From Candidatus Eiseniibacteriota bacterium (lineage in GTDB: Bacteria; ARS69): 14,932 bases of DNA. How positions within the stretch are numbered: the first letter of the stretch is position 1; every line of letters begins with the position of its first letter. The DNA is taken from contig JBQTGV010000128.1 in the NCBI GenBank assembly GCA_052390515.1, positions 1-14,932 of the forward strand, written 5' to 3'. The position numbers were made by a program, and so were the translations under genes. Below, piece after piece: positions 1-14,932 of this stretch. The notes under the pieces are model-generated. The model saw only the letters and a program-made list of their open reading frames with translations, did not search any database and had not been told where the DNA came from.

Positions 1-171
1 GTCGTGACCTGCCCGGTGACCCTTGCCCTCCGCCACCTGAACGACCGCATCCACGACTTCCTGCGCGAGGTCACCCTCGCGGACATGATCCGGACGGGCG
101 AGCGCCGTGGGACGCCGGCCCCCCGCCGGGAGTTCCGGCTCGAGTTCCGACCACTACCCGAGGAGATCTGA
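1..171 (+). CDS. Rrf2-family transcriptional regulator of the SUF operon, C-terminal fragment (5'-truncated by the window)
   Basis: Not in the ORF track. Frame 1 reads [56 protein letters not shown]. The CP...LN..I..FL..VTLAD pattern is typical of Rrf2/IscR C-termini. Its stop TGA (169-171) overlaps the sufB ATG (TGATG), the usual position for this regulator. Confidence 0.8.
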
Positions 172-1610
172 TGGCGACGACGGAACGGACGCTCCACGAG
201 TTCGCGACCCGGGAGTACAAGGAAGGCTGGGTCACGGAGATCGAGCAGGAGACGCTTCCGCCTGGGCTGAACGAAGACGTCATACGCCGGATCTCGGCCA
301 TCAAGGGCGAACCGGACTGGATGACCGAGGGCCGGCTCAAGGCCTATCGCCACTGGCTCGGAATGAAGGAGCCGAAGTGGCCGAACGTCGACGTGAGCCC
401 GATCGACTACCAGGCCGTCTCCTACTACTCCGCACCGAAGAAGGCGCTCGCCAGCCTCGACGAGGTGGACCCGCTGCTGCTCGAGACCTACGCGAAGCTC
501 GGCATCCCCATCGACGAGCAGAAGGCGCTCGCCGGCGTGGCCGTCGACGCGGTGTTCGACAGCGTGTCCGTGGCCACCACCTTCCGGGCGAAGCTCGCCG
601 AGCTGGGCATCATCTTCTGCTCGTTCTCGGAGGCCGTCCGCGAGCACCCCGAGCTCATCCGCAAGTACATGGGCTCGGTCGTCCCGTACTCCGACAACTT
701 CTACGCGACGCTGAACGCGGCGGTGTTCACCGACGGCTCCTTCGTCTACGTGCCGGAGGGCGTGCGCTGTCCGATGGAGCTGTCCACGTACTTCCGAATC
801 AACGCGGCGTCCACCGGCCAGTTCGAGCGCACGCTGATCGTCGCCGACAAGGGCGCTTACGTCAGCTACCTGGAAGGCTGCACAGCACCGAAGCGCGATG
901 AGACCCAGCTGCACGCCGCGGTCGTGGAACTCGTGGCGCTCGAGGACGCGCAGATCAAATACTCGACGATCCAGAACTGGTATCCCGGCGACGAGAACGG
1001 CAAGGGCGGGATCTACAACTTCGTCACCAAGCGTGGCATCTGCAAGGGCGCGCGCAGTCGCATCTCCTGGACGCAGGTCGAGACGGGCTCGGCCATCACC
1101 TGGAAGTACCCGAGCTGCATCCTGAAGGGCGACGACTCCGTCGGCGAGTTCTACTCCGTGGCCCTGACCGCCGGTCACCAGCAGGCCGACACCGGCACGA
1201 AGATGATCCACATCGGGCGGAACACGAAGAGCACGGTGGTGTCCAAGGGCATCTCCGCAATGCACGGGCAGAACACGTATCGCGGCCTGATCAAGGTGCT
1301 CAAGGGCGCCGCGAACGCACGCAACTACACGCAGTGCGACTCCATGCTCATCGGCGACCAGTGCGGCGCGCACACCTTCCCGTACATCGAGGTGCACAAC
1401 ACGACGACGCAGATGGAGCACGAGGCGTCCACGGCGAAGATCGGCGAGGACCAGCTTTTCTACTGCGCGCAGCGCGGAATCGAGACCGAGGACGCCGTCT
1501 CGATGATCGTGAACGGTTTCTGCAAGGAGGTCTTCCGGGAGCTGCCCATGGAGTTCGCTGTCGAGGCGAGGAAGCTCCTGTCAGTGAGCCTGGAAGGAAG
1601 CGTCGGCTAG
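171..1610 (+). CDS. sufB: Fe-S cluster assembly scaffold protein SufB
   Basis: 479 aa with SufB motifs [74 protein letters not shown]-terminal SLEGSVG. RBS GAGGAG just upstream. Confidence 0.99.
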
Positions 1611-1684
1611 GCGCCGGCACACGTCGTCATCACGAAGCGCCGGCCGTGCGGCCGACTCACGTCGAACCAAGGAAGCCCTAGGAA

Positions 1685-2440
1685 ATGCTGCGAATCAAGA
1701 ACCTGCACGCCAGCGTCAACGGCAAGGAGATCCTGCGGGGTTTCGACCTCGCCATCCAGGCAGGCGAAGTGCACTCGATCATGGGTCCGAACGGATCCGG
1801 CAAGAGCACGCTCGCGCAGGTCCTGGCCGGCAAGGAGTCCTACGAAGTGACCGCCGGCGAGATCACGTACGACGGCGAGAACCTGCTGGAGCTGGATGCC
1901 GACGAGCGGGCGCGGAAGGGCGTCTTCATGGCCTTCCAGTACCCGGTGGAGATCCCCGGCGTCAGCACGCTCGAGTTCCTCAAGGCGGCCTACAACGCGC
2001 TGCGCGAGGAACGGGGCGAACCCGAGGTCGACGCGCTGGACTTCCTGAGCCTGGTGAAGAAGCGGCTGAGCGTCGTCAAGATGGACGACTCGTTCCTTCG
2101 TCGGGGCGTCAACGAGGGGTTCTCCGGCGGCGAGAAGAAGAGGCACGAGATCTTCCAGATGGCGGTGCTCGAGCCCAAGCTCGCCGTCCTGGACGAGACC
2201 GACTCGGGGCTGGACATCGACGCGCTGCGAGTCGTCGCCGACGGGATCAACGCACTCCGCTCGCCGGGCCGCGCCTTCCTGGTGATCACGCACTACCAGC
2301 GCCTGCTGGAGTACGTGAAGCCCGACTTCGTGCACGTGCTGGTCGACGGGCGCATCGTCAAGTCGGGCGGCAAGGAGCTGGCGCTCACTCTCGAGGAGAA
2401 GGGCTACTCGTGGCTCGAGGCCGGGGCGGGCGCGCGATGA
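1685..2440 (+). CDS. sufC: Fe-S cluster assembly ABC-type ATPase SufC
   Basis: 251 aa; Walker A GPNGSGKST, FQYPVEIPGV, signature NEGFSGGEKKR, Walker B LDETDSGLDIDAL, ITHYQRLL; lies between sufB and sufD. Confidence 0.99.
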   Translation: MLRIKNLHASVNGKEILRGFDLAIQAGEVHSIMGPNGSGKSTLAQVLAGKESYEVTAGEITYDGENLLELDADERARKGVFMAFQYPVEIPGVSTLEFLKAAYNALREERGEPEVDALDFLSLVKKRLSVVKMDDSFLRRGVNEGFSGGEKKRHEIFQMAVLEPKLAVLDETDSGLDIDALRVVADGINALRSPGRAFLVITHYQRLLEYVKPDFVHVLVDGRIVKSGGKELALTLEEKGYSWLEAGAGAR

Positions 2441-3774
2441 CGGCAAGCACCCTCACCCCGACCCTGCGGGATCTCGCCGCGTCGCTCGGGAACGGGCGCG
2501 GAGAAGCGGCTCCCGCGTGGGTGGGCAGCCTCCGCCGCCGCGGTCTGGCGCGCTTCGACGAGCTCGGCCTGCCGACGCTCCGCGACGAGGACTGGCGCTT
2601 CACCGATCTCCAGCCCATCACTTCGGGGAGCTTCGCGCTGGGCCGTGGTGACGCCTCCGCCGTCGACGCCCAGCGGATCGAGCGCTTCGCCTTCCCGGAT
2701 CTCGCCGGACCGCGTCTCGTGTTCGTCGACGGCCGCTTCGCGCCGGCCCTCTCCCGGATCGGACGGCTGCCGAAGGGCGTGGAAGTCGGCAGCCTCGCCG
2801 CGGCGGTCCGCGAACGGCAGGCGATCGTCGAGCCGCACCTCGACCGGCTCACCGGGACGCGCTCGGAAGCGCTCACCGCGCTCTCCTCCGCGTTCCTGGA
2901 GGACGGGCTCTTCGTCCACGTTCCCGAGGACGCGGTCCTGGACGGCGCGGTCCACGCGCTCTACGTCACCACGCCGGGCTGTCCCTCCCTCGTCCACCCG
3001 CGCAACCTGGTGATCGTCGGTCGCCGCGCGCGGGCCGCGGTCGTCGAGGACTACGTGTCTCTCGACGACACTGCGACGTTCACCAACGCGGTCACCGAAG
3101 TGGTGGTCGACGACGGAGCCGCGTGCGAGCACTACGTCATCGAGCGCGAGAACGACGACGCCGTCTCGGTCACGACGCTGCATTCCGAGCAGGGCCGGGA
3201 GACCCGCTTCCACTCGCACTCCGCGCTGCTGGGCGGAGCGTTCGTCCGCAACAACGTGTACCCGGTGCTTCGCGGCGAGGGCGGCTGGTGCCTGCTCAAC
3301 GGTTTCTACGTCCCGCGCGGCCGCCAGCACCACGACACGTTCATGGTGGTGCGCCACGCCGCTCCGCGCTGCGACAGTCGGCAGTTCTACCGCGGCCTGC
3401 TGGACGATCACTCGCGCGGCGTCTTCAGCGGGAGGATCGTGGTGCACGAGGGAGCGCAGAAGACCGACGCGAAGCAGACCAACCGCAACATCCTGCTGTC
3501 GGACGATGCGCTGATCGACACCAAGCCGCAGCTCGAGATCTACGCCGACGACGTCAAGTGCACGCACGGTGCGACGGTCGGACAGCTGGACGCCGACGCG
3601 GTGTTCTACCTGCGTGCGCGGGGGATCCCCGAGCAGACCGCCCGCGGGCTGCTCATCTTCGCCTTCGTGAACGAGGTCGCCGACCGCATGGAGGTGGAAC
3701 CGGTGCGCCGGGAGCTTCGCCGCATCCTGAAGGCGCGGCTGCCGGGAGCGCGCCCCACGGAGGGAGCGGAGTGA
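2437..3774 (+). CDS. sufD: Fe-S cluster assembly protein SufD
   Basis: 445 aa from the ATG at 2437 (ATGA overlap with sufC stop, preferred over the track's 2410 start). Motifs LPTLRDEDWRFT, AQKTDAKQTNRNILLS, DTKPQLEIYADDVKCTHGATVGQLD, FYLRARGI. Confidence 0.97.
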   Translation: MTASTLTPTLRDLAASLGNGRGEAAPAWVGSLRRRGLARFDELGLPTLRDEDWRFTDLQPITSGSFALGRGDASAVDAQRIERFAFPDLAGPRLVFVDGRFAPALSRIGRLPKGVEVGSLAAAVRERQAIVEPHLDRLTGTRSEALTALSSAFLEDGLFVHVPEDAVLDGAVHALYVTTPGCPSLVHPRNLVIVGRRARAAVVEDYVSLDDTATFTNAVTEVVVDDGAACEHYVIERENDDAVSVTTLHSEQGRETRFHSHSALLGGAFVRNNVYPVLRGEGGWCLLNGFYVPRGRQHHDTFMVVRHAAPRCDSRQFYRGLLDDHSRGVFSGRIVVHEGAQKTDAKQTNRNILLSDDALIDTKPQLEIYADDVKCTHGATVGQLDADAVFYLRARGIPEQTARGLLIFAFVNEVADRMEVEPVRRELRRILKARLPGARPTEGAE

Positions 3775-5033
3775 CGCGAGTGGCACGGAGCACGATGAGC
3801 CCACCCAGGGAGACGCCGCTGGACGTGGAGCAGATCCGGGAGCGTTTCCCGGTGCTTCGCCGGCTCGTCAACGGCCGCCCGCTCGTGTACCTCGACTCCG
3901 CGGCGACGACGCAGAAGCCCGTCGACGTGCTCGACGCCGTGACCGACTTCTACTCCCGCATCAATTCGAACGTGCACCGCGGGGTGCACACGCTCAGTCA
4001 AGAGGCCACCGCGGCGTTCGAGGGATCGCGGGAAGCGGTGCGGCGGTTCTTCGGCGCACGTGAGGCCGCGGAGATCGTCTTCGTCCGGGGTACGACCGAG
4101 GCCATCAACCTGGTCGCACAGTCCTGGGGACGGCCACGGCTCCGCCCCGGCGACGAGATTCTGATCACGGAGATGGAGCACCACTCGAACATCGTGCCCT
4201 GGCAGATGCTCGCTGAACAGACCGAGGCGCGTCTCGTGGTCGCGCCGATCGACGACCGCGGTGCCCTTCGGGTGGACGAGATGGAGGCGATGATCGGCGA
4301 GCGCACGCGCATCGTCTCGATGGTGCACGTCTCCAACGCGCTCGGCACGGTGAACCCGGTCCGACGCGTCGCAGAGCGCGCCAGGGCGGCCGGCGCCGTG
4401 ACCGTGATCGACGGAGCGCAGGCTGCGGCTCACCTCGCCGTCGACGTGCGGGAGCTCGGCTGCGACTTCTACGCCATTTCCGGACACAAGATGTTCGCAC
4501 CGACCGGGATCGGCGCGCTGTACGGGCGCCGGGAGCTCCTCGAGGCGATGCCGCCCTGGCAGGGCGGCGGCGACATGATCAAGTCGGTCACGTTCGAGCG
4601 CACACTGTACAACGACGTCCCCCACCGGTTCGAGGCGGGCACCCCCGACATCGGCGGCGCCGTGGGCCTCGCCGCGGCCGTCGCGTTCCTCGGCAGGCTC
4701 GGGACGGACCGGATCCGCGCGCACGAGCTCGAGCTGCTGGAGTACGGGACCGCGGCGCTGGAGTCGGTGCCGGGGCTCCGTCTCATCGGCACGGCGGGCG
4801 AGAAGTCCGGCGTGCTCTCGTTCGTGCTGGACGGTATCCACGCCCACGACATCGGTACGGTCCTGGATCACGGCGGCGTGGCCGTTCGCACCGGCCATCA
4901 CTGCGCGCAGCCGGTCATGGACCGCTTCCGCGTACCGGCCACGGCCCGCGCCTCGCTCTCGGTCTTCAACGACAAGGACGACCTGGACGCGCTGCTCGCC
5001 GGTCTGGAGCGCGTCCGCACGCTGTTCCGATGA
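3771..5033 (+). CDS. sufS: Group II cysteine desulfurase SufS
   Basis: Motifs YLDSAATTQKP, NVHRG, RGTTEAIN, EHHSNIVPW, DGAQ, PLP-lysine SGHKM, FEAGTP, group II catalytic RTGHHCA. Start is GTG 3771 (GTGA overlap with sufD stop) or ATG 3795. The track's 3123 start is a spurious extension through sufD. Confidence 0.97.
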   Translation: MTRVARSTMSPPRETPLDVEQIRERFPVLRRLVNGRPLVYLDSAATTQKPVDVLDAVTDFYSRINSNVHRGVHTLSQEATAAFEGSREAVRRFFGAREAAEIVFVRGTTEAINLVAQSWGRPRLRPGDEILITEMEHHSNIVPWQMLAEQTEARLVVAPIDDRGALRVDEMEAMIGERTRIVSMVHVSNALGTVNPVRRVAERARAAGAVTVIDGAQAAAHLAVDVRELGCDFYAISGHKMFAPTGIGALYGRRELLEAMPPWQGGGDMIKSVTFERTLYNDVPHRFEAGTPDIGGAVGLAAAVAFLGRLGTDRIRAHELELLEYGTAALESVPGLRLIGTAGEKSGVLSFVLDGIHAHDIGTVLDHGGVAVRTGHHCAQPVMDRFRVPATARASLSVFNDKDDLDALLAGLERVRTLFR

Positions 5034-5043
5034 GGAGGAACCG

Positions 5044-5502
5044 TTGTCGCACGATCTGAGCGAGCTCTACCAGCAGGTGATCCTGGATCACCACAGGAAG
5101 CCCCGCAACTACGGGAAGCTCGCGGCGGCGGACCATGCGGCGGAGGGCTACAATCCGCTGTGCGGCGACCGGATCCGGGTGGAGCTGCGCCTCTCCAGCG
5201 ATGGCCGCCTGGCGGACGTCGGGTTCACCGGAGCCGGCTGCGCGATCTGCACGGCCTCGGCCTCCCTCATGACCGAGCACCTCCGGGACAAGACCCCCGA
5301 GCAGATCCTGCGGACCTTCGAGGGATTCACCGGGCTCGTCACCGGACAGCGCGACGTCGCAGACGAAGAGGACGTCGTCGGCAAGCTCGTGGTCTTCGCC
5401 GGCGTGCGGGAATTCCCGGTGCGGGTGAAGTGCGCCACCCTCCCCTGGCACACGCTGCGCGCAGCGCTCGAGCGGCGCCCGGAACCGGTCACCACGGAGT
5501 GA
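5044..5502 (+). CDS. sufU: SUF system sulfur-transfer protein SufU (NifU/IscU N-terminal family)
   Basis: 152 aa, TTG start with RBS GAGGAGG at 5032-5038. Motifs LYQQVILDH..KPRN, NPLCGD, GCAIC.ASASLM, RVKCATLPW; lacks the IscU LPPVK motif; directly follows sufS. Confidence 0.95.
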   Translation: MSHDLSELYQQVILDHHRKPRNYGKLAAADHAAEGYNPLCGDRIRVELRLSSDGRLADVGFTGAGCAICTASASLMTEHLRDKTPEQILRTFEGFTGLVTGQRDVADEEDVVGKLVVFAGVREFPVRVKCATLPWHTLRAALERRPEPVTTE

Positions 5503-5516
5503 GGAGAACAGACGCC

Positions 5517-5867
5517 ATGGAGCAAGGCGCGGCGAACGCCAGAGCACTCGACTACACCGGCAAGCCGGAGCTCAGGGACCCGATCGTCGCGGCCTTGCGT
5601 ACGGTGTACGATCCGGAGATCCCGGTCGATATCTTCGAGCTCGGTCTCGTCTACCGGGTGAGCGTCGACGAGGGCGGCGCCGCGAGCGTCGAGATGACCC
5701 TGACGTCACCGGCCTGCCCTTCGGCCGAGCAGATCCCGGTGGACGTCCGCAATCGGATCGCCGAGATCCCCGGTGTCGCCTCGGTCCGGGTGGACATCGT
5801 GTGGGATCCGCCGTGGAACCCGGACTTCATGTCCGACGCGGCGAAGCTCCAGCTGGGGATGTACTGA
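5517..5867 (+). CDS. sufT: DUF59 / SufT-like Fe-S cluster maturation protein
   Basis: 116 aa from ATG 5517 with GAGGAG upstream. DUF59 motifs VYDPEIPVDIFELGLVY, MTLTSPACP, VWDPPW...MSDAAKLQLG. Confidence 0.9.
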   Translation: MEQGAANARALDYTGKPELRDPIVAALRTVYDPEIPVDIFELGLVYRVSVDEGGAASVEMTLTSPACPSAEQIPVDVRNRIAEIPGVASVRVDIVWDPPWNPDFMSDAAKLQLGMY

Positions 5868-5925
5868 TGTCGGACCTTCGGGCACGATGCGCAGGACGGC
5901 GTCGCGCGCGGCGGGACGAGCCGCT

Positions 5926-6168
5926 TCACGGAACGATGCGGTTCCCGGAGGAGTCGGTCACCTCGAGTGCTTCCACCGGGCAGACCTGGCAGGCCTCGAC
6001 GATCCGTTCCGGCCCGACCGCGTCCGCCCCGGCAGCGAACGACGCGACCGACTCCGCGTCGAACTCGAACAAGGATGGAGCGACCTTGATGCAGTTCCCC
6101 GAGCTGATGCAGCCGTCTCGGTCGATGCACACCGTGAGATCGCCGATTCGCCGTTCCACCGTGGCCAT
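5926..6168 (-). CDS. Small monocluster ferredoxin, probably [3Fe-4S]
   Basis: 80 aa with IDRDGCISSGNCIKVAP.LF and EACQVCPVEAL: C-x2-S-x2-C...CP, the second cluster Cys replaced by Ser. Purine-rich RBS and a promoter candidate upstream. Confidence 0.88.
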   Translation of the reverse strand: MATVERRIGDLTVCIDRDGCISSGNCIKVAPSLFEFDAESVASFAAGADAVGPERIVEACQVCPVEALEVTDSSGNRIVP

Positions 6169-6189
6169 GGCCCCCCCCTTCGGCGCGGG

Positions 6190-6218
6190 AGCCTACCGGG
6201 AAGGGACCGTCCCGGCAA
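6190..6218 (-). promoter_or_regulatory. Candidate sigma70-type promoter of the ferredoxin gene
   Basis: Minus strand TTGCCG (6218-6213), 17-nt spacer, TAGGCT (6195-6190), ending 21 nt before the ferredoxin ATG. Confidence 0.55.
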
Positions 6219-6240
6219 GGCGGTCCGGAAGGGCGGGGCG

Positions 6241-6594
6241 ATGAGCGCGCACGCGCATCCGGAGACTCCGATCACGCTGACGGAAGCCGCCGCACGCGCC
6301 ATCGTGGCGCGAGCCGCCCGCGACGGCCGGCCGGGCGCGCCGCTGCGCGTGAGGATCCAGGGAGGCGGATGCTCCGGGGTCACCTACAAGATGGACTGGG
6401 AGTCGGAGGCGCCGCGCCCCGATGACTTCGTCGTGGCCCGGGGCGACGCCACGCTGATCATCGATCCGCGGTCGCTCGTGTTCCTCAAGGGCTCGACGCT
6501 GGACTATCAGGCGGAGCTGATGCAGCAACGCTTCGTCTGGATCAACCCGAACGCGAAGAGCTCCTGCGGCTGCGGGGAGTCGTTCGCCATCTGA
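6241..6594 (+). CDS. A-type Fe-S carrier protein (HesB/IscA/SufA/ErpA family)
   Basis: 117 aa from ATG 6241 (the track's 5773 start is spurious). Motifs ITLTEAA, LRVRIQGGGCSG, IDPRSLVFLKGSTLDY, NPNAKSSCGCGESF. The subfamily cannot be fixed by eye. Confidence 0.95.
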   Translation: MSAHAHPETPITLTEAAARAIVARAARDGRPGAPLRVRIQGGGCSGVTYKMDWESEAPRPDDFVVARGDATLIIDPRSLVFLKGSTLDYQAELMQQRFVWINPNAKSSCGCGESFAI

Positions 6595-6612
6595 GCGGAG
6601 GCTTGGCGCTCG

Positions 6613-7644
6613 TCAGGAACGGTCGCCGACCTCCTCCTCCTCCTCGCCGAGCTCCTCGTCGTCGAACTCGTCCTCGAACTCCTCCTCGTCGTCCACCTCT
6701 TCCAGGTCTTCCTCCTCGTCACTGCCGTTGACCGGCGGCTGTCCTGCGCGCCGATCCTCGCGAGCTTCGCCCGAGCGCGGCTCTTCCCGGCCTTCGCCCG
6801 AAGGCCGAACGCGCTCCGGCCCGGAGACGAGCTTCAGGTTCACGGCCTGCAGATCGTCCTCGAAGCGCTCGGACTCCCGCAGGTCGAACTCGAAGATGTG
6901 GTCCCGGCTGGGTAGCTGGTGGAAGGCGACGTTCTTGGGTAGCTGGGAGTCGTGGAAGAATACGGTCGCGTAGGGGGAGTCCGGGTGGCGCGAGTCCGTG
7001 ATCCAGATGCCCGGACCCGACTCCCTCAAGTAGCGAAGGAAGCCGTACCCCTTGCCGCTGTGGTTGTAGCACACCCCTCGGGCCTTGCCGCCGTTCTTTC
7101 CCCAGGCCTCCCGCTCCTGCTGCGGTATGGGTAGTAGATTCGGAATCAGGAACCCGGAAACGAAGAGATCCGCCTCCTCGCGCAACACCTTCGCCGCCCC
7201 GTCGAACGCGACGACCTCGACGCGACAGCCGCGGCCCTGCACGGCGCGGACCAGGTCGGCCAGGTCGCCGTCGCCGGTGAGCAGAAGTACCCGCTCGAGG
7301 TGCTCGGTCTGGTCGAGCGCGTCCACGGTCAGCGCCACGCTCGTTCCGGCCCGCACGATCCGCCCGCCAGCCTCGTCCGACACGGTGTGGAGACTCCGGC
7401 GGATCACCTTGTAGCCGAAGTCGCGGAGCGTCGCGGCGAAGTTCTCCTGGCCGCGGCGGTAGCCCGCGTCCGCTGCGCGCTCATCGTCCCACGGCAGGTA
7501 GACGTTCATGCGGACGGCTTCGGCGCCGTCCCGGGTGGCGAACTCGCGGAGCACGTCGTAGCGCATCCCGTGTCCGCCGGACAGCGAGACGGTCTGTCCG
7601 TCGACGTAGATGCCCACACGGGCGTTGGAGAGCGGCACAGCCAT
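6613..7644 (-). CDS. NYN (LabA/DUF88, PIN-like) domain protein with C-terminal cold-shock-like OB domain and acidic tail
   Basis: 343 aa from ATG 7644 (RBS GAGGAG at 7656-7651). NYN-type motifs VGIYVDG, LRDFGYKV, VLLLTGDGD, GCRVEVVAF, LREEADLF; CSD-like KGYGFL and VFFHDS; D/E-rich C-terminus. Confidence 0.85.
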   Translation of the reverse strand: MAVPLSNARVGIYVDGQTVSLSGGHGMRYDVLREFATRDGAEAVRMNVYLPWDDERAADAGYRRGQENFAATLRDFGYKVIRRSLHTVSDEAGGRIVRAGTSVALTVDALDQTEHLERVLLLTGDGDLADLVRAVQGRGCRVEVVAFDGAAKVLREEADLFVSGFLIPNLLPIPQQEREAWGKNGGKARGVCYNHSGKGYGFLRYLRESGPGIWITDSRHPDSPYATVFFHDSQLPKNVAFHQLPSRDHIFEFDLRESERFEDDLQAVNLKLVSGPERVRPSGEGREEPRSGEAREDRRAGQPPVNGSDEEEDLEEVDDEEEFEDEFDDEELGEEEEEVGDRS

Positions 7645-7734
7645 GGGGGACTCCTCGGAGGAGATCGGTTCCAAAGCCTTCGATTCCCGTGCGCGACCGC
7701 GGGGGAACGCGGGCGCGGCGAATGACCTGAACCG

Positions 7735-7763
7735 ATGATCGGTGCGGGTTTCCCGGTCGTCAA
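7735..7763 (-). promoter_or_regulatory. Candidate sigma70-type promoter of the NYN gene
   Basis: Minus strand TTGACG (7763-7758), 17-nt spacer, GATCAT (7740-7735) in the 150-bp folA-NYN gap; strong -35, mediocre -10. Confidence 0.4.
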
Positions 7764-7794
7764 GGCCGATGCCATGGGGGAAACCCCGAAATCC

Positions 7795-8289
7795 TCAGAC
7801 GTCGGTTCGCTCGTAGACGCGGAACGTGTGGGCATGCTCGTTTCGGTCGTCGGCCGCGTGCCGTTCCTCGCCGACGAGCTGCCACTCACCCGGCGTGGCC
7901 TCCGGGAAGACCGTGTCTCCCTCGAGGTTCGCGTGCACGACGGTCATGTACACGCGGTCGCAACGCGGGAGGGCCATCTCGAACACCTCTCCGCCGCCGA
8001 TGACGAACGCTTCGTCTTCGCCCTCGGCGTGTTCCAGCGCTTCCGTCAGGGAGTGCACGACCTGAACGCCGGGCGGCGCCTTGTAACCGGGCTGCCGCGT
8101 GATCACCACGTTCGTCCGTCCCGGTAACGGCCGGCCGACCGATTCCCAGGTCTTGCGTCCCATGATGACGGTGTGGCCGAGCGTGGTGGTCTTGAAGTGC
8201 CGCAGATCGTTCGGGAGGTGCCAGGGCAGCCGCCCGCCGGCCCCGATCACGCGGTTCTCCGCCATGGCCACGATGCACGAGACGGTCAC
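7795..8289 (-). CDS. folA: Dihydrofolate reductase
   Basis: 164 aa from GTG 8289 (GTGA overlap with thyA stop). Motifs [60 protein letters not shown]. Confidence 0.97.
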
Positions 8290-9080
8290 ACCGAGACCTC
8301 GGCGCGGATCGCGGGATGGGGATCGTAGCCGTGGAAGCGGATGTGCTCGGCGTGGAACGCGAAGAGGTCGCGCACGTCGGGATCCAGCTCCAGCCGGGGC
8401 AGCGGCCGCGGCTCGCGGGTGAGCTGCAGGGCGGCCTGCTCCAGATGGTTGCGGTACAGGTGCGCATCGCCCAGCGTGTGGACGAACTCGCCGGGAAGCA
8501 GCTCCGAAGCCCGGGCGATCAGGTGCGTCAGGAGCGCATACGAAGCGATGTTGAAGGGCAGCCCCAGGAAGACGTCGGCGCTCCGCTGGTAGAGCTGGCA
8601 GGAGAGCCTTCCGTCCGCGACCCAGAACTGGAACAGCACGTGGCACGGTGGCAGGGCCATCCGCGGAAGCTCGCCCACGTTCCAGGCGCTGACGATCAGC
8701 CGCCGCGAGAACGGGTTCGAGCGGATCTCGCGCAGCAGATCCGAGATCTGGTCCACCACGCCTCCGTCTTGCGTCGCCCAGGAGCGCCACTGCCGTCCGT
8801 AGATCGGCCCGAGGTCGCCCTCCTCGTCCGCCCACTCGTCCCAGATGGTGACGCCGCTCTCCCGGAGCGTGCGCACGTTCGTCTCCCCCCGCAGGAACCA
8901 GAGCAGCTCGTGCACGATGGAGCGAAGGTGCAGGCGCTTGGTGGTGACGAGCGGAAAACCTTCGGCCAGGTCGAAGCGCATCTGGTGGCCGAAGATGCCG
9001 CGCGTGCCGGTTCCGGTCCGATCGGCGCGCTCCACCCCCTCCTCCAACACGCGGCGCATGAGCTCGAGGTAGTTCCGCAC
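8286..9080 (-). CDS. thyA: Thymidylate synthase
   Basis: 264 aa from GTG 9080 with RBS GGAGG at 9090-9086. Motifs [37 protein letters not shown], catalytic [26 protein letters not shown]. It is the real C-terminal part of the 2032-aa track ORF. Confidence 0.98.
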
Positions 9081-9155: not shown

Positions 9156-9185
9156 TTGCTGCGCCTTGGCGGCCGATGCTAGAGT
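9156..9185 (+). promoter_or_regulatory. Candidate sigma70-type (extended -10) promoter of the kinase/activator gene
   Basis: TTGCTG (9156-9161), 18-nt spacer, TAGAGT (9180-9185) with an extended -10 TG at 9177-9178; back-to-back with the thyA promoter candidate. Confidence 0.45.
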
Positions 9186-9227: not shown

Positions 9228-12200
9228 ATGAAAGCGCACGAGACGCCGGCCGTGCCCGGCTACGACGTCGAGGCTTGCATCGGAGGAGGCTCCTCCGGGG
9301 ACGTGTACCGCGTCCGCCACCTCGACTCCGGCGACGTGCAGGCGCTCAAGATCGCCCACCCCTCGCCCCGCGGGAGCGCCGAGGAGATCGCGTTCCGCCA
9401 AGAGTACGACTTCCAGTCCCGGCTGCGCCATCCCCACATCGTGCAGACGCATCGGTTCGGCGAGACCGACGACCTTCGCCCCTTCTACACGATGGAGCAC
9501 GTGGACGCGGTGCCCCTCCGCGAGCTCTACGTTCGGGGCGGCGTGGAGGCCCTGGGGGAGGCCGCGCTGGCGGTGTGCTGCGCGCTGGAGTACGCCCACG
9601 GCCAGAACTTGCTGCACGGGGACATCAAGCCCGCCAACCTGCTCGTCTCGGCGAGACCCGACGGAAGCTTGGACCGCGCGTTGCTCGGCGACTTCGGCCA
9701 CGCGCGGCCGCTGGGGCAGGGAGCGGCCTCCGTTCAGGGAACGCTCGCCTACCTCGCACCGGAGGAGATCGACGGCTGGCTGACCGACGTCCGCTCCGAT
9801 CTGTACTCGCTGGGCGTGACGCTCTTCGAGGCGATCACCGGGCGGCTGCCGTATCCCGCGTCCACTGCGGCCGAGCTCTTCCGCATCATCAACGAGGTGC
9901 AGGGTCCGCCGAGGCTCGCGGAGGCGGCGCCGGACCTCGATCCGCGCTGGGCGAAGCTCGTCGATTCCATGATCGCCCGCAACCCGGCGCTGCGTCCGCG
10001 TTCGGCCACCGAGGCCGCGTCGGCGGTCGCGGCGCTCCTCGGCCGGAGCCTGCGCCGCGACGGACCTCACGGCGACGGGGAGGCGGTCTTCGGCACGACC
10101 CTGGTGTTCGTGGGCCGGGGCGCGGAGCGCCAGCGGCTGCTGCAATTGCTCCGCGATCCCGGCTCGGCGCGCACCGTGCTCGTCACCGGCGTCGAGGGCG
10201 TCGGCAAGTCCCGCTTCGTGGAAGAGTTCGCGCGGTCCGTCGAGCTGGACGGCGCCCGCGTCTTTCGGACCGACGCGCGCGGGGAGTCGGGCCCCGCGTT
10301 CCGCGTCCTGCGCCGGGTGCGCGGCGAGGGCCGCTGCGAGGACCTCACCGCCGCCCGGAGCGAGAGGCGCGCCGACCCTTTCGCGCCGGCGGGCTCGCGC
10401 GCGGAGCTCGAGGCGCTCGTCGACAGGCTGGTCGGCGGGCAGGAGTCCATGGACGTCGAGCGCGTGTACGTCTTCGACTCGCTGGAGTCCGCCGACCTGG
10501 ACAGCACCGACTTCCTGCGCGCGCTCGCGGCGAGGCTCGCCGGGACGCGGCATCTGCTGCTGCTGGCGGCCGAGACGGCTGCCGGATGCGCCGCCGTCGA
10601 AAGACTCCGCGGCCCGGACGTGGTGGAGATCGCGCTCGGGCCGCTCTCCTCCTCCGAGGTTCGGGAACTGCTGGTGGCGCACCTGGGCGACGCCGCGGGC
10701 GCTCCCGGATCCTCGGTCCCGCTCGACGACCTGGAGCTCGGCCGGCTCGTCACCTGGACGGAGCGTCACGCCGGCGGCAATCCACGACTCCTGGAGGCCG
10801 CCCTGCGGTCGCTGTCGCGACACGGGTACCTGCGACGCGCCGAGTCCGGCTGGCGCCTCGACGAGGCCGCGCTCGAGAGACGGCCTCTCCTGCTCGCCCC
10901 CCGCGAGCGGGTCGCGGAACGCGTGCGCCTGCTCTCTCCCGCCGGGCGCGCCTACCTCGAGCTCGCCGCCGTGTGCGGATCCGAGTTCGACGCCTCGGCG
11001 CTGGGCGCCGCGCGAGGTTTCGACGCGGAGAGCGCATCCGCTTTCCTCACCGATGCGCTGCTGGCCGGCGTCCTGGTGCTCGCGCCGGGGCGGGCCTCCG
11101 CCTACCGGTTCGCCGATCCCGCGGCCCGGCGCGTTCTGCTCGAAGGCCTCGACGAGGAGACGCGCGGCGACCTCCACCGGCGTATCGCCGGGCACCTGCG
11201 GGCGGCCGGCGCGGCGGCCGACCCCGCGCTCGCCGAGCACCTCCGGCTGGCCGGCGAGGCGGCGCTGGCCCGGGAGACGTACGCGCTCGCCGGCGAGGCA
11301 GCACGCGCCGCGGGCGCATTCCAGGAGGCGGCGCGTTGCTTCGAGAACGCGTGGCGCCTCCCGGCACCCGCGGGGGAGGCGGCGCTTCCCGCGTTCGCGC
11401 TCTCCTGGCTCGACGCGCTGCACGTCAACGGCCAGTTCGGCGACGCCGTGCTCCTCTCCGCGGAGCTGCTCGCGCGCGCCGCGGAGCTGCCGCGCTCCCG
11501 GCCCGACGTCGGGCACGTGCTCGTCGCTCGCGCGGCGTGCCTCGGCCAGCTCGGCCGCCGGGACGAGGCGCAGCAGTCGCTGCGCTCGCTTCTGGACTCC
11601 GAGCCGCCGCCCGAGGACCGCCGCCTCGAAGCACGCGCGCTCATCCAGTACGGCCAGCTCGAGGCGCACGCGAACCGCAAGGAGAGCGCGCGAGAGTACC
11701 TGCTCGAGGCCCGGGACCTCGCCGCGCGAGAGGGCCTCGCCTACGAGAGCGGCAAGGCGGAGCTGTTCCTGGGCGTGGTCTGCTGGCGGGAGAACGATCC
11801 GGAAGGCGCTCTGGAGTGGCTCGCCCGCGCGCAGGACCACCTGGTCGCGGCGCGCGGCGACGACCTGCTCCCCGCGGTCTGGGGCAACCAGGCGATTTGC
11901 CACTGGTATCTCCTGGACGCGCGCAAGGCCGCCGTGGCGCATCGGCGGGCGGCGGACGGCTACCTCCGGCAGCACCGCCGCTCCGAGGCCGCGCGTTCCT
12001 ACCAGAACCTCGCGCACGTGCTCACCGAGACCGGACGCTGGCAGGAGGCGGAGCGGGCCCTCGAGGCCGCGGAGCGCCTGAACCGAACGCTCAGCGGTCC
12101 GCGGCACGCGAGCTACTTCCACTACGGGAAGGCGCGGCTGGCGCTCTATCGCGGCCGGCTGGACGAGGCCGCGTCCCACGCCGAGCGCGCCGTGACGCTG

Positions 12201-14393
12201 GGGCGAAGTGTGGACGACGCCCTCGTCACTTGCGGGCACCTGTGCCTCCGCGGCCTCGTCGAGATCGCGTCGGGAAGGCACGAGGCCGCGCGCCGCACGG
12301 GAGAGGAGGCGCTCGCCGCCGCCCGCGCCGCCGACTACGGGTTCGGTCTCGCCAAGAGCCTCTGGATCCTCGGCGAGGCGGCGCGCCAGCGGGGCGAGAC
12401 CGACGAGGCGCTCCGCCTGCTGGAGGACGCGCGGGCCGCGGCCACCGACGCCGCGCATCCGGTGCCCGTGGCGCTGCTGCGCATCCAGCTCTCGCGCGCG
12501 GAGCTGATCGCCGAGCGCGGCGACGAATCCGAGGCGGAGGTGCTGCTGGGCGAGTGCCGCGCTCTGGCGGACCGCTGCGACTCGACCCTGTGGCGCGGGC
12601 TGCTCGCTCTCGGCGAGGGGCGGGTTCGCACCCACCTCGGCAGCTTCGAGCGCGCCCGTCAGTCGCTGGCGCCGGCCTACGAGACGTTCGCCGGACTCGG
12701 CGCGGAACTGCTGCGCGCGGAGACGCTGATCGCGCAGGCGTCGGCGCAGGCGGGGCTCGGCGGCCGCAGCGCGGCGCACTCCGCACTGCGCGCCGGCCGT
12801 TCGATCTACCAGAGCCTCGGCATGCCCGCGCCCCGCTCCCCCTTCCCCGACGACGAGGCGCCCGAGGAGGGTTCTCTCTCCACCGTCCGCAGGGTCCTGG
12901 AAGCGGCCGCCGCCGTCTCCCGCGACATCACCACGCTGCAGAGCGTCGACGACGTGCTGCGCCGGATCCTCGACGTGGCCATCACCCACCTGGGCACGGA
13001 GCGCGGGGTCGTCGCGCTGGCGAATCCGCAGACCGGGGAGCTGGAGGTGAAGTTCGCCCGCAACATCGATCGGGAGTCGATCTCCGGCACCCTGGAGATC
13101 AGCCGTTCGGCGCTCGCCATGGTCAGACGCGAGGGCGACGTGATCCACAGCAGGGACGCGCTGGACGACCCGGAGCTTCGCCTGCACGAGAGCGTGCGCC
13201 GCGGCCGCATCCGCTCGCTGATCTCCCTGCCGATCCGCTGGGGCGAGACGACGCTCGGCGCGCTGTACATGGACCACCGCACCCTGACCGATCTCTTCGG
13301 GAGGGAGGAGCAGCTCTTCCTCCGCTTCATCGCCGACCTGGCCGCGATCGGCATCCGCAACGCGCAGCAGTTCGAGATCAAGGAGGAGGCCGTACGAAAT
13401 CTGCGCGGTGAGATCGAGGATGACGAGCTCGTGTTTCCCGCCACGGTGGTGGGGCGGAGCGGGCGCTTCCGAGACATGCTCCGGCGCGCCCTGCGCGCCA
13501 TGCGCTCGGGAAGGATCGTCCTGATGACCGGGCCGAGCGGGTGCGGCAAGGACCACCTCGCGAACGTCCTCCACGACGCCGTCGGCCGGCGCGGTCCCTT
13601 CGTGGACTGTCCGCTCCCCACCCTCTCCGAGACGCTCCTCGAAGCCGAGCTCTTCGGGGTGGCGCACGGCGCGGCGACGCAGACGACCGCGCGCGAGGGC
13701 CTCGTCGACGCCGCCGGGAGCGGGACGCTCTTCCTGAACGAGGTCGCCGACCTGCCGCTCTTCCTGCAGCCGAAGCTGCTCCACTTCCTGGAGCGCCGCG
13801 AGTACCGCCGGGTGGGCAGCACCAAGACGCTCCACTCGGAGGCCGCGATCCTGTGCGCCACGAACGCGAACCTCGAGCGCAAGGTCGCGGAGGGCAGCTT
13901 CCGCGAGGACCTCTTCTACCGCATGTCGGAGTGCGTGCTGGAGATCCCCCCCCTCCGCGAGCGACGCGAGGACATCCCCCTCCTGGCCGAGCTGTTCCTG
14001 GGCGAGGAGGGCCGCCTCCTGGGGCGGCCCCGACCGGTCCTCGATCCCGCTGCGATGGACCTGCTCATGCGCTGCTCCTGGGATGGCAACATCCGCGAGT
14101 TCCGGAGCTGCTTGAAGGGCGCCGTCGCCGAGAGCAAGGACGGCTACATCGAGCCGCGGCACCTGAACGCCGCCAGCCTGCACAGGCTCGAGCGGGACGG
14201 GGCAGGCGGGGGCTTCCGCGACGAGGTCGAGCTCGTGGAGCGGCGAAGCATCAGCGAGGCGCTGGAGCGCTGCGGGGGAATCATCAAGCGCACCGCGACG
14301 TCCCTGCGGATTCCGGAGAGCACGCTTCGGCGCAAGATCATCCGCCACCGACTCCGGCACCTCGTCACTCAGAAGCGACGGCAAGCGGACTGA
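9228..14393 (+). CDS. Multidomain regulator: Ser/Thr kinase + STAND-like P-loop ATPase + TPR-like repeats + GAF + sigma54-activator AAA+ + Fis-type HTH
   Basis: 1721 aa. Kinase (about 9258-10040): [45 protein letters not shown]. ATPase: FVGR at 10107, Walker A GVEGVGKS at 10188-10211, GGNP at 10773. Ala/Leu-rich helical repeats about 11250-12820. GAF about 12920-13370 ([26 protein letters not shown]). Activator about 13440-14130 ([55 protein letters not shown]). HTH ALERCGG...[16 protein letters not shown]. Confidence 0.93.
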
Positions 14394-14394
14394 C

Positions 14395-14533
14395 GCGCCG
14401 GATCCGGCGCCCAGAACGCCGAAAGTGGCGCCTGACGCGAAAGCCCGTGTAACCGCCGGTTGTCAGTCACTTTGCCGCCCGGCGCTCCTCGTGGCGCGCC
14501 GGTTCCGCCGCCGCTGCATCGCCGAAAACGGCG
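14395..14533. promoter_or_regulatory. Repeated CGCC-N6-GGCG palindromes, candidate upstream activator sequences
   Basis: CGCCGGATCCGGCG (14396-14409, inside the perfect 16-bp palindrome 14395-14410), CGCCGAAAGTGGCG (14417-14430), CGCCGAAAACGGCG (14520-14533); one-mismatch copies at 14483-14496 and 14497-14510. All lie upstream of the -24/-12 promoter. Confidence 0.55.
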
Positions 14534-14574
14534 CGCGGAGCCCCCCGCGCCTCGATGCCCGCACCTCGATCGAT

Positions 14575-14625
14575 ACTTTAGATGATTCGATTCAAGCTAT
14601 TGAAATACACCATGTTGAATCTACA
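14575..14625. promoter_or_regulatory. AT-rich patch with IHF-like binding site
   Basis: The most conspicuously AT-rich stretch in the window. ATTCAAGCTATTG (14590-14602) matches WATCAANNNNTTR with one mismatch; lies between the palindromes and the sigma54 promoter, where IHF sites usually are. Confidence 0.55.
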
Positions 14626-14656
14626 TGCTGGGGGGAGCCCGACGGCTGTACTGCCG

Positions 14657-14673
14657 CGGGCACGGCGGTTGCC
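14657..14673 (+). promoter_or_regulatory. Sigma54 (-24/-12) promoter
   Basis: CGGGCACGGCGGTTGCC versus consensus YTGGCACGNNNNTTGCW. GG at 14659-14660 and GC at 14671-14672 are exactly 10 nt apart; intergenic, downstream of an activator gene and 55 nt upstream of an ATG with an RBS. Confidence 0.8.
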
Positions 14674-14727
14674 TTTGCACGCCGCCCGAACCCCCAAGCC
14701 GGCCCCCCGGCCGGAAGGAGTCCCCCG

Positions 14728-14932
14728 ATGCGTTCGACCTTCCGACGCGGCGCGCTCGCGCTCGCCGCGGCTTCGCTTCTCTCGCAGTGGCCGGCCTCCA
14801 CGGCCCTGGCCGATGGCCCCCAAGGGGGCCAGGATCCTCCCGAAGGGTGCGCTCCCTCGTCGCTGTGCGACCCGGGCTGCCTCGAGTGGGATCCGCTTCT
14901 CCAGGCCTTCGTGCTGATCACCCAGGTCACCC
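14728..14932 (+). CDS. Secreted protein/peptide precursor of unknown function (3'-truncated by the window)
   Basis: Not in the ORF track. RBS GGAAGGAG at 14713-14720, ATG 14728, open to the window end: MRSTFRRGALALAAASLLSQWPASTALA-DGPQGGQDPPEGCAPSSLCDPGCLEWDPLLQAFVLITQVT. Basic n-region, hydrophobic h-region, A-L-A signal peptidase I site. Confidence 0.75.
   Translation, partial: MRSTFRRGALALAAASLLSQWPASTALADGPQGGQDPPEGCAPSSLCDPGCLEWDPLLQAFVLITQVT

Follow-up and report, generated by a model that had tools for sequence, protein, structure and literature searches.

A giant kinase-STAND-TPR-GAF-sigma54 regulator and its candidate target, a small gene for a putative exported peptide, in Candidatus Eiseniibacteriota

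Which gene is controlled by a regulator that carries a kinase, a STAND NTPase, a TPR array and a GAF domain in front of a sigma-54 activator module? This question is raised by a 14,932-bp contig of Candidatus Eiseniibacteriota (C128; JBQTGV010000128.1 of assembly GCA_052390515.1), which we analysed over its whole length and refer to as the window; all coordinates are window positions. A sequence-only reading had proposed that the regulator acts on the small gene directly downstream, and the order of features on which it relied was borne out: activator gene, palindromes, AT patch, promoter, ribosome-binding site and an open reading frame (ORF) with a signal peptide. From genomic comparisons, we consider it likely that the regulator, the downstream promoter and the peptide gene form a dedicated activator-target pair, and the link between regulator and target is well supported by genomics. 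We hold this reading with no greater confidence mainly because the L1 loop of the regulator puts the activation chemistry in doubt.

The regulator, the spacer and the small gene

The regulator gene has a GC content of 0.77/0.51/0.92 by codon position (window genes were chosen by GC at the third position), and its domains are listed in Table 1. The kinase carries the elements that define Hanks-type enzymes (catalytic Lys, D-x-K-x-x-N, DFG and APE). Residues K41, D132, K134, N137, DFG 155-157 and PE 178-179 are invariant in seven orthologues, and the catalytic loop HGDIKPAN (130-137) is of the non-RD form, with HGD in place of HRD. Both parts of a STAND regulator, a P-loop AAA_16/NB-ARC NTPase and a C-terminal repeat sensor, are present as well. 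The Walker A (GVEGVGKS) and Walker B (VFDSLES) motifs of the NTPase are conserved in the seven orthologues, and the repeat region matched TPR_12 (1.5e-17), TPR_2 and related Pfam families at residues ~920-1150, with TPR_MalT staying below its cut-off (27 bits against 45).

The C-terminal third contains the sigma-54 interaction domain of enhancer-binding proteins (EBPs), with the Walker A motif GPSGCGKD at residues 1435-1442 and an AAA_lid_14 domain between it and HTH_8. The closest solved structure for the GAF and AAA+ part is NifA (chain 9qq6_C, residues 1223-1649, E 6e-58), followed by ZraR, NtrC1, FleQ and PspF, and PknB is the closest one for the kinase. The NCBIfam nifA model scores the regulator at 257 bits, and no NCBIfam equivalog cut-off is reached. 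A hydropathy scan of the regulator gave no convincing membrane segment, in agreement with the sequence-only reading. Membrane anchoring was rejected, as the sole hydrophobic peak (19-residue maximum 1.67, residues 603-621) holds an Asp and sits in a helical arm. Sequence varies most in the NTPase, the arm and the TPR region (36-42% mean pairwise identity, compared with 52-57% for the kinase, GAF and AAA+ domains).

Downstream of the regulator, we identified a sigma-54-type promoter that is rare in this 4.27-Mb assembly (70% GC, 223 contigs). Its GGCAYG-N4-TTGC core occurs at ten sites on both strands of the genome, with 0.0004 expected in this spacer. We examined 12 sites with a looser core (GGYAYG-N4-TTGC), and only the window site has three palindromes within 320 bp upstream; one other has two and the rest have none. 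The genome also encodes RpoN (Sigma54_DBD, 218 bits, contig C161), and thus holds both the sigma factor and the promoter type used by EBPs. A consensus scan of 14300-14932 found neither a sigma-70 promoter nor a terminator.

The four palindromes of the spacer share the form CGnCG-N4-CGnCG (at 14396, 14417 with one mismatch, 14497 and 14520). They are arranged as two pairs that lie ~100 bp apart, with the members of each pair spaced by 21-23 bp, and paired palindromes occur at similar distances in the orthologous loci. A C-terminal HTH with predicted paired sites at -139 to -263 is the arrangement found in EBPs. Single sites of this form are common (0.59 expected per 420 bp). The genome has 448 pairs (0.035 per 335 bp), and the double-pair arrangement is limited to three places in its 4.27 Mb. 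We also considered terminator hairpins of the regulator gene; this is less likely because no T-tract terminator was found and sites of the same kind reappear after another 100 bp.

The sequence-only reading had also placed an integration host factor (IHF)-like AT patch between palindromes and promoter. In the window this patch is real: it matches the IHF consensus with one mismatch and its 30-nt GC minimum is 0.27, whereas a value of 0.37 or less is reached by 0.2% of random 140-nt genome segments. The genome has three HU/IHF-family genes. However, the patch is AT-rich in only 4/8 orthologous loci and matches the IHF consensus with at most one mismatch in 2/8. IHF looping as a general, conserved feature was therefore rejected, with the patch kept in only about half of the loci.

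The small ORF is present as proposed, apart from its ATG, which had been placed one base later than in our reading. It is interrupted by the contig end, and two further sequences complete it. The reverse strand of contig C195 starts with the last 17 nt of the window and continues with Leu-Leu-TGA, giving 70 codons, and a contig from a related strain (run X2), 97% identical over 14619-14930, runs past the window end with the same Leu-Leu-stop. The stop after 70 codons excludes a long ordinary enzyme, the case that the sequence-only reading had itself named as damaging to a peptide signal. By eye, the predicted signal peptide has an RR n-region, a hydrophobic core and an ALA/D junction. The mature part opens with DG..GGQDPP (GGQDPP at 14824-14841), and its C-terminal end is a hydrophobic helix. 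An AlphaFold model (pLDDT 66) shows the signal-peptide helix at residues 6-23, a disordered proline-rich middle and a C-terminal helix.

The GGQDPP peptides appear to be a new family. Pfam, NCBIfam and PADLOC have no model for them (weak DUF4730 and PsbQ matches fell below the cut-offs), and a profile search of 1.84 billion representative proteins returned ten matches at E<=1e-3, all of 64-86 aa and of the same design. In a protein atlas, feature matches reached at most 0.88, to unnamed ~70-aa proteins, and structural matches stayed below the naming bar; both serve as leads only. All 15 family members have a basic n-region and a hydrophobic core, and most have an A-x-A-like site before D or G, as judged by eye. 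The mature peptides measure ~40-55 residues, carry a net charge of -2 to -8, and combine conserved ends with a variable middle.

Taken together, these features suggest the following mechanism. The giant cytoplasmic protein would be a multi-input sensor, in which a kinase that looks active by its motifs, a STAND switch with TPR repeats and a GAF domain are mounted on a NifA-like sigma-54 module. Dimers of the Fis-type HTH might bind the four palindromes 140-265 bp upstream of the promoter, behind the regulator's own gene. On sensing a signal in the cytoplasm, the STAND/TPR and GAF parts would trigger assembly of the AAA+ ring, which would drive sigma-54-dependent transcription of one small monocistronic gene. 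The 70-residue precursor encoded by this gene is probably a Sec substrate cleaved after ALA, and the product would be a ~42-residue anionic peptide that starts with a proline-rich segment carrying the conserved GGQDPP and finishes in a hydrophobic helix. As a rule, a receiver, GAF, PAS or V4R domain serves as the switch of a sigma-54 activator; in this regulator the switch would comprise a complete STAND NTPase, a TPR sensor and a kinase. Since a single construct holds regulator, enhancer, promoter and output, this unstudied family is unusually easy to test.

Table 1. Features of the window, with positions and strand.
Feature	Positions	Strand	Basis or remark
Regulator gene, 1721 aa, kinase-STAND-TPR-GAF-sigma54 AAA+-HTH_8	9228..14393	+	ORF call, Pfam
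Hanks-type Ser/Thr kinase (Pkinase PF00069, residues 12-261)	9261..10010	+	Pfam 6e-37
STAND P-loop NTPase (AAA_16 PF13191, residues 294-445)	10107..10562	+	Pfam 4e-18
TPR / MalT-like helical-repeat sensor region (about residues 691-1200)	11298..12827	+	Pfam
GAF domain (PF01590, residues 1240-1376)	12945..13355	+	Pfam 1.3e-10
Sigma-54 interaction AAA+ (Sigma54_activat PF00158, residues 1408-1570)	13449..13937	+	Pfam 1.5e-44
L1 loop at the GAFTGA position (residues 1481-1486)	13668..13685	+	reads GAATQT, no aromatic
Fis-type HTH_8 DNA-binding domain (PF02954, residues 1667-1704)	14226..14339	+	Pfam 1.4e-8
Distal candidate enhancer, CGCCGGATCCGGCG (14396-14409) and CGCCGAAAGTGGCG (14417-14430)	14396..14430		about -263 and -242 from the promoter GG
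Proximal candidate enhancer, CGCCGGTTCCGCCG (14497-14510) and CGCCGAAAACGGCG (14520-14533)	14497..14533		about -162 and -139
AT-rich patch	14577..14628		IHF-consensus match (one mismatch) at 14590-14602
Sigma-54-type -24/-12 promoter, GGCACGGCGGTTGC	14659..14672	+	GGCACG-N4-TTGC, GG-N10-GC spacing
Ribosome-binding site, GGAAGGAG	14713..14720	+	7 nt before the ATG
Small ORF, ATG at 14728	14728..14932	+	cut by the contig end after codon 68
Predicted signal peptide, codons 1-28	14728-14811	+	judged by eye
suf Fe-S cluster operon (SufB, SufC, SufD, cysteine desulfurase, NifU-like, FeS_assembly_P, SufA-like)	171-6594	+	
NYN-domain gene	6613-7674	-	
Putative dihydrofolate reductase gene (folA)	7795-8265	-	reading of the translation
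Putative thymidylate synthase gene (thyA)	8286 to about 9080	-	reading of the translation

Upstream of the regulator gene, we observed an extended -10-like element, TGCTAGAGT, at 9177-9185, 51 nt before the ATG. Similar 9-mers (TGCTAGGCT, TGCTACCGT, TGCTAGACT and TGATAGTCT) occur 42-65 nt upstream of the chosen starts in 6/8 loci. In the other two, the TGCTAGAGT-type 9-mer overlaps the chosen ATG, so the true start of these two regulator genes may be further down.

Conservation and linkage of the pair

The phylum was sampled with 12 species genomes of one family and eight genera. Full-length regulator orthologues with 41-52% identity are present in seven genomes besides the source genome, eight of the 12 in total, and the gene is single-copy and vertically conserved across five genera. 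In all eight loci, the regulator is followed on the same strand by the GGCAYG-N4-TTGC core, a ribosome-binding site and a signal-peptide ORF of 66-84 codons (the window's own copy being cut at codon 68 within its contig), and the core lies 69-97 nt before the peptide ATG. The proposal that the big protein controls the downstream gene therefore withstood the comparison with its orthologues. The mature peptides of these loci begin with D/G..GGQDPP, in which DPP is invariant, and end in a hydrophobic helix that closes in Leu.

A profile of the eight peptides found one match per genome (E 1e-17 to 1e-23), always beside the regulator. The peptide family occurs in exactly the eight regulator-bearing genomes, and regulator and peptide are absent together from the other four (100, 92, 82 and 73% complete), in which no peptide-profile match was better than E 0.1. 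Among the matches listed in a metagenome contig scan for clade members there was no close relative, the best listed having 31% identity.

The genes around the pair vary from locus to locus. The thyA/folA genes lie upstream of the regulator only in genomes G000, G001 and G004, and the same three have a RapA-like SNF2 helicase gene downstream, which in our assembly follows the peptide gene on C195 and is 66% identical to its counterpart behind the G004 peptide gene. In G002 the peptide gene is followed by an HDOD gene, while in three genomes a gene of opposite orientation, HDOD (G007, G010) or GyrI-like (G011), separates the peptide gene from the regulator. The conserved unit is thus the regulator-peptide pair with its promoter region, and the peptide gene looks monocistronic. 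HDOD genes lie beside the module in 3/8 loci (L019 12851-13753, L023 5464-6852 and L024 5751-6644). In G010 only, the regulator stop is followed by four tandem units of ~15 nt resembling CACGAAAAGCCCCCG (L024, oriented about 12040-12120).

These data also bear on a reading of the module as an NLR-like defence or stress sensor, in which the STAND/TPR part would detect a foreign or damage-associated protein and release a burst of membrane-active exported peptide. The STAND NTPase with TPR repeats and the hydrophobic C-terminal helix of the peptide would suit such a role. However, PADLOC matches only the generic kinase and AAA+ domains and nothing on the peptide, and the flanks are housekeeping genes (thyA/folA upstream, the RapA-like helicase downstream on C195) in which no mobile or defence genes were seen. 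The single-copy, vertical inheritance of the gene also argues against it, and we consider a defence function very improbable.

Comparison with the X2 strain showed which positions are held constant. Over 14394-14583 there are 23 substitutions, none of them in the 40 palindrome-arm positions and five in the N4 centres (hypergeometric P 0.003). Four substitutions fall inside the two proximal palindromes, all in N4 centres. Over 14656-14768, a stretch that spans promoter, leader and the beginning of the ORF, there is none. The palindrome arms are conserved, and the ORF is under purifying selection. In the X2 peptide ORF, 4/5 differences are synonymous. Within genera, codon differences in the peptide gene comprise 7 synonymous and 10 non-synonymous changes for G001/G008, and 10 and 11 for G007/G010; by eye on the alignment, most non-synonymous changes of the G001/G008 pair lie in the signal peptide.

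The sequence-only reading had further suggested a circuit in which the peptide returns to the TPR region. In the RRNPP systems (PlcR/PapR, NprR/NprX, AimR/AimP), the gene of a cytoplasmic TPR regulator stands directly upstream of a small signal-peptide gene, a layout that resembles the one described here. By analogy, the exported peptide or a fragment of it might re-enter the cell and bind the TPR array, forming a cell-cell circuit with sigma-54 output. The regulator has a long TPR array and no clear membrane segment, and the peptide gene is strictly linked to it. The conserved ends and variable middle of the mature peptide would also fit a signal. In addition, the identities of the mature peptide and of the TPR region rise together (r 0.56, exact Mantel P 0.033, six taxa), and for the kinase, NTPase, GAF, AAA+ and HTH domains no such correlation was found (r -0.41 to 0.19); G008 was dropped from this set as a near-duplicate of G001, and G010 lay outside the regulator alignment owing to a run of N in the gene. 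A co-variation of the kind that the sequence-only reading had advised looking for is visible, but it was one among nine tests, made on six related taxa, and its significance would be lost on correction. Of all the domains, the longest fast-evolving one is also expected to mirror phylogeny most closely. For these reasons we take the correlation as a weak hint only.

Other observations speak against such a loop. No importer, permease or processing genes were seen linked in the loci, and the mature peptide, anionic and ~40-55 residues long, differs from RRNPP signals of 5-10 residues. The regulator is also about four times larger than an RRNPP receptor, and differs from it in having an NTPase, a kinase, GAF and AAA+ domains and a sigma-54 output. 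In distant loci, moreover, the small gene has no signal peptide and stands beside a radical SAM/SPASM gene. Co-folding of the TPR region (G002 residues 640-1225, 7-row alignment) with the mature peptide (30-82, 15-row alignment) scored 0.01 and gave no answer either way. The return of the peptide to the TPR region is speculation, and we regard an RRNPP-like loop as unlikely.

A contact loop without an aromatic residue

The strongest doubt about a dedicated activator-target pair comes from the regulator itself. At the GAFTGA position, its predicted L1 loop retains the Thr and lacks the aromatic residue, and the orthologues read GTATQV, GVATGV, GAATDV, GAITGV and GAATGV, none of which has an aromatic residue either. 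Elsewhere in this genome 11 further EBPs were found, and they read GAFTGA, GAFTDA, GSFTGA, GSYTGA, GAYTGA, GAFTGS or GTFTDA, and all distant homologues in which the motif could be matched by pattern have GAFTGA, GAFSGA or a similar sequence with Phe/Tyr (some rows of this survey gave no pattern match). In addition, the Walker B motif of the sigma-54 AAA+ domain is LFLNE throughout the clade, with NE instead of DE. Some unrelated EBPs of the surveyed loci have NE as well, so it may be a tolerated variant.

A review describes the Phe of GAFTGA as essential for activation and rarely replaced by Tyr (PMC7057263). In a preprint, EBP homologues whose GAFTGA loop is deleted are reported to act at sigma-70 promoters (bioRxiv 10.1101/2023.06.06.543975). 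In the regulator, by contrast, the loop is substituted and keeps its Thr. By current rules the L1 loop of this clade should not work, which makes activation of sigma-54 by the regulator less certain than the layout suggests.

Several points thus weigh against a dedicated pair. The predicted loop (GAATQT here, GxAT/GAIT in the clade) lacks the Phe/Tyr that the reviewed rule calls essential and that the 11 other EBPs keep. Moreover, the promoter could be served by any of about 20 other EBP genes in the genome. Kinship among the orthologous loci means that 8/8 does not amount to eight independent observations. As for the spacer, single palindromes are frequent in this CpG-rich genome, small RNA hairpins are another way to read their 5-bp arms, and the IHF-like patch is not conserved across loci. 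Finally, the putative signal peptide was judged by eye only.

The loop might instead mean that the regulator is unable to remodel sigma-54. It could then be a repressor, an anti-activator or a mixed-ring partner beside a canonical EBP, or it could act at a sigma-70 promoter. The absence of the aromatic residue from all clade members examined would be explained in this way, given the canonical motifs in the 11 other EBPs and in every pattern-matched distant homologue, and the two literature reports point in the same direction. Against this, the loop is substituted rather than deleted, and no defect is apparent in the Walker A motif, the arginine-finger region or sensor II. All eight loci conserve the adjacent -24/-12 element, the scan of 14300-14932 revealed no sigma-70-type promoter, and no second EBP gene is linked in the loci. 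A regulator of this kind therefore seems to us improbable, and a dedicated sigma-54 activator remains the reading we prefer.

The clade represents a natural experiment on the GAFTGA loop, with a conserved sigma-54 promoter beside a putative activator whose contact loop is free of aromatic residues. Either the aromatic rule is not universal, or the regulator acts on the sigma-54 promoter in an undescribed way. A bolder version would combine these elements into a self-sensing unit, in which a cytoplasmic STAND/NLR-like receptor, joined to a kinase and a sigma-54 motor, induces its own exported GGQDPP peptide, senses it or a fragment of it through the co-varying TPR region and drives sigma-54 with an aromatic-free L1 loop. 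We think this combination quite unlikely; if true, it would break the rule of an indispensable Phe/Tyr in GAFTGA.

Distant homologues, related systems and neighbouring genes

Outside the clade, a scan of species-representative genomes identified full-length homologues (residues 12-1710, same domain order) with 29-35% identity, and 39% in one locus, in Latescibacterota, Myxococcota (Labilithrix, Nannocystis, Polyangiaceae, Kofleriaceae) and other groups. A survey of homologues, as the sequence-only reading had advised, extended the layout to this wider family: besides the 8/8 clade loci, 19/35 distant loci have a sigma-54-type match (at least 10 of 12) within 1.5 kb after the regulator stop, although four of the 35 have <1.2 kb of downstream sequence. 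The chance rate in the window's genome is about 0.04 per 1.5 kb, and 15 of the 19 matches sit 190-270 bp after the stop. This suggests that a target just downstream is a habit of the family, with small peptide genes as recurrent targets.

The genes behind these promoters fall into several types. In eight distant loci, the promoter is followed by a 60-75-aa ORF without a signal peptide and then by a ~480-500-aa ORF, which Pfam assigns to radical SAM/SPASM (run for L081 alone). In these loci (L045, L048, L054, L056, L081, L051, L064 and L073) the promoter lies ~200-270 bp after the stop. Their small ORF has conserved Cys and PPLPFP/LPPP motifs, with an acidic tail in one subgroup, and some of the loci also have a methyltransferase-like ORF. 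By eye, no similarity between the distant small ORFs and the GGQDPP peptides was seen. The Latescibacterota-type loci look like a cluster for a ribosomally synthesised and post-translationally modified peptide under the giant regulator. Seven other loci have the promoter, a conserved leader of ~200 nt and then a ~780-850-aa ORF. In these loci (L035, L040, L042, L043, L044, L050 and L068), the ~200 nt after TGGTACGAAGATTGCA are seemingly conserved without a convincing ORF, and in this second Latescibacterota subgroup the stretch may serve as an extended leader or encode a small RNA. In two Kofleriaceae-type loci the promoter precedes a lipoprotein-like ORF. With homologues beside peptide and radical-SAM genes, the family may control small-peptide production in several uncultured phyla.

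The distant homologues (Latescibacterota, Myxococcota and others) share the Pkinase-AAA_16-TPR-GAF-Sigma54_activat-HTH_8 order with the regulator. They differ in keeping GAFTGA/GAFSGA and in having small ORFs without a signal peptide, followed by the ~480-500-aa ORF. Among described proteins, NifA/NorR/FhlA-type EBPs resemble the C-terminal third of the regulator (GAF, sigma-54 AAA+, lid and HTH_8), and they too have palindromic upstream sites and a -24/-12 promoter near the regulator gene. Unlike them, the regulator has about 1,200 additional N-terminal residues (kinase, STAND and TPR), the loop GAATQT and a Walker B with NE, and its putative target is one tiny secreted-peptide gene.

The MalT/PknK STAND regulators likewise have a P-loop AAA_16 NTPase followed by a MalT-like TPR sensor, a likeness at the level of domain composition. 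PknK also has an N-terminal Ser/Thr kinase. In contrast, the output here would be a fused sigma-54 module, as opposed to a LuxR-type HTH in MalT and phosphorylation alone in PknK.

In Myxococcus, an EBP and sigma-54 promoters are found directly upstream of secondary-metabolite genes (PMC7910581). The peptide and radical-SAM loci of the distant homologues parallel this control of natural products. The available part of that paper, however, concerns polyketide and non-ribosomal peptide genes with ordinary EBPs, and within it there is no fusion family and no Sec-exported peptide. An EBP with an adjacent sigma-54 target is thus an already known kind. Particular to this case are an unstudied STAND-kinase sensor on an EBP, a secreted-peptide family that appears to be new, and the L1 loop. 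A literature search, which left supplements aside, found no paper on the kinase-STAND-TPR-GAF-sigma54 architecture or its target.

The remainder of the window upstream of the regulator (171-9080) consists of housekeeping genes, namely the suf operon, the NYN-domain gene, folA and thyA. Elsewhere in G000, strict sigma-54 cores lie in front of a flagellar rod-like gene (C3) and of genes for two secreted proteins, one of 496 aa (C104) and one containing a run of Asp (C132). Together with the other core sites, these offer a first glimpse of the sigma-54 regulon of this genome. We also observed a second very long frame in G000 (contig C214:3-605, minus strand), of 1429 aa and cut by the contig end. 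Its last domain is a sigma-54 AAA+ domain in which GAFTGA is canonical, and it may be another giant activator, one without the kinase.

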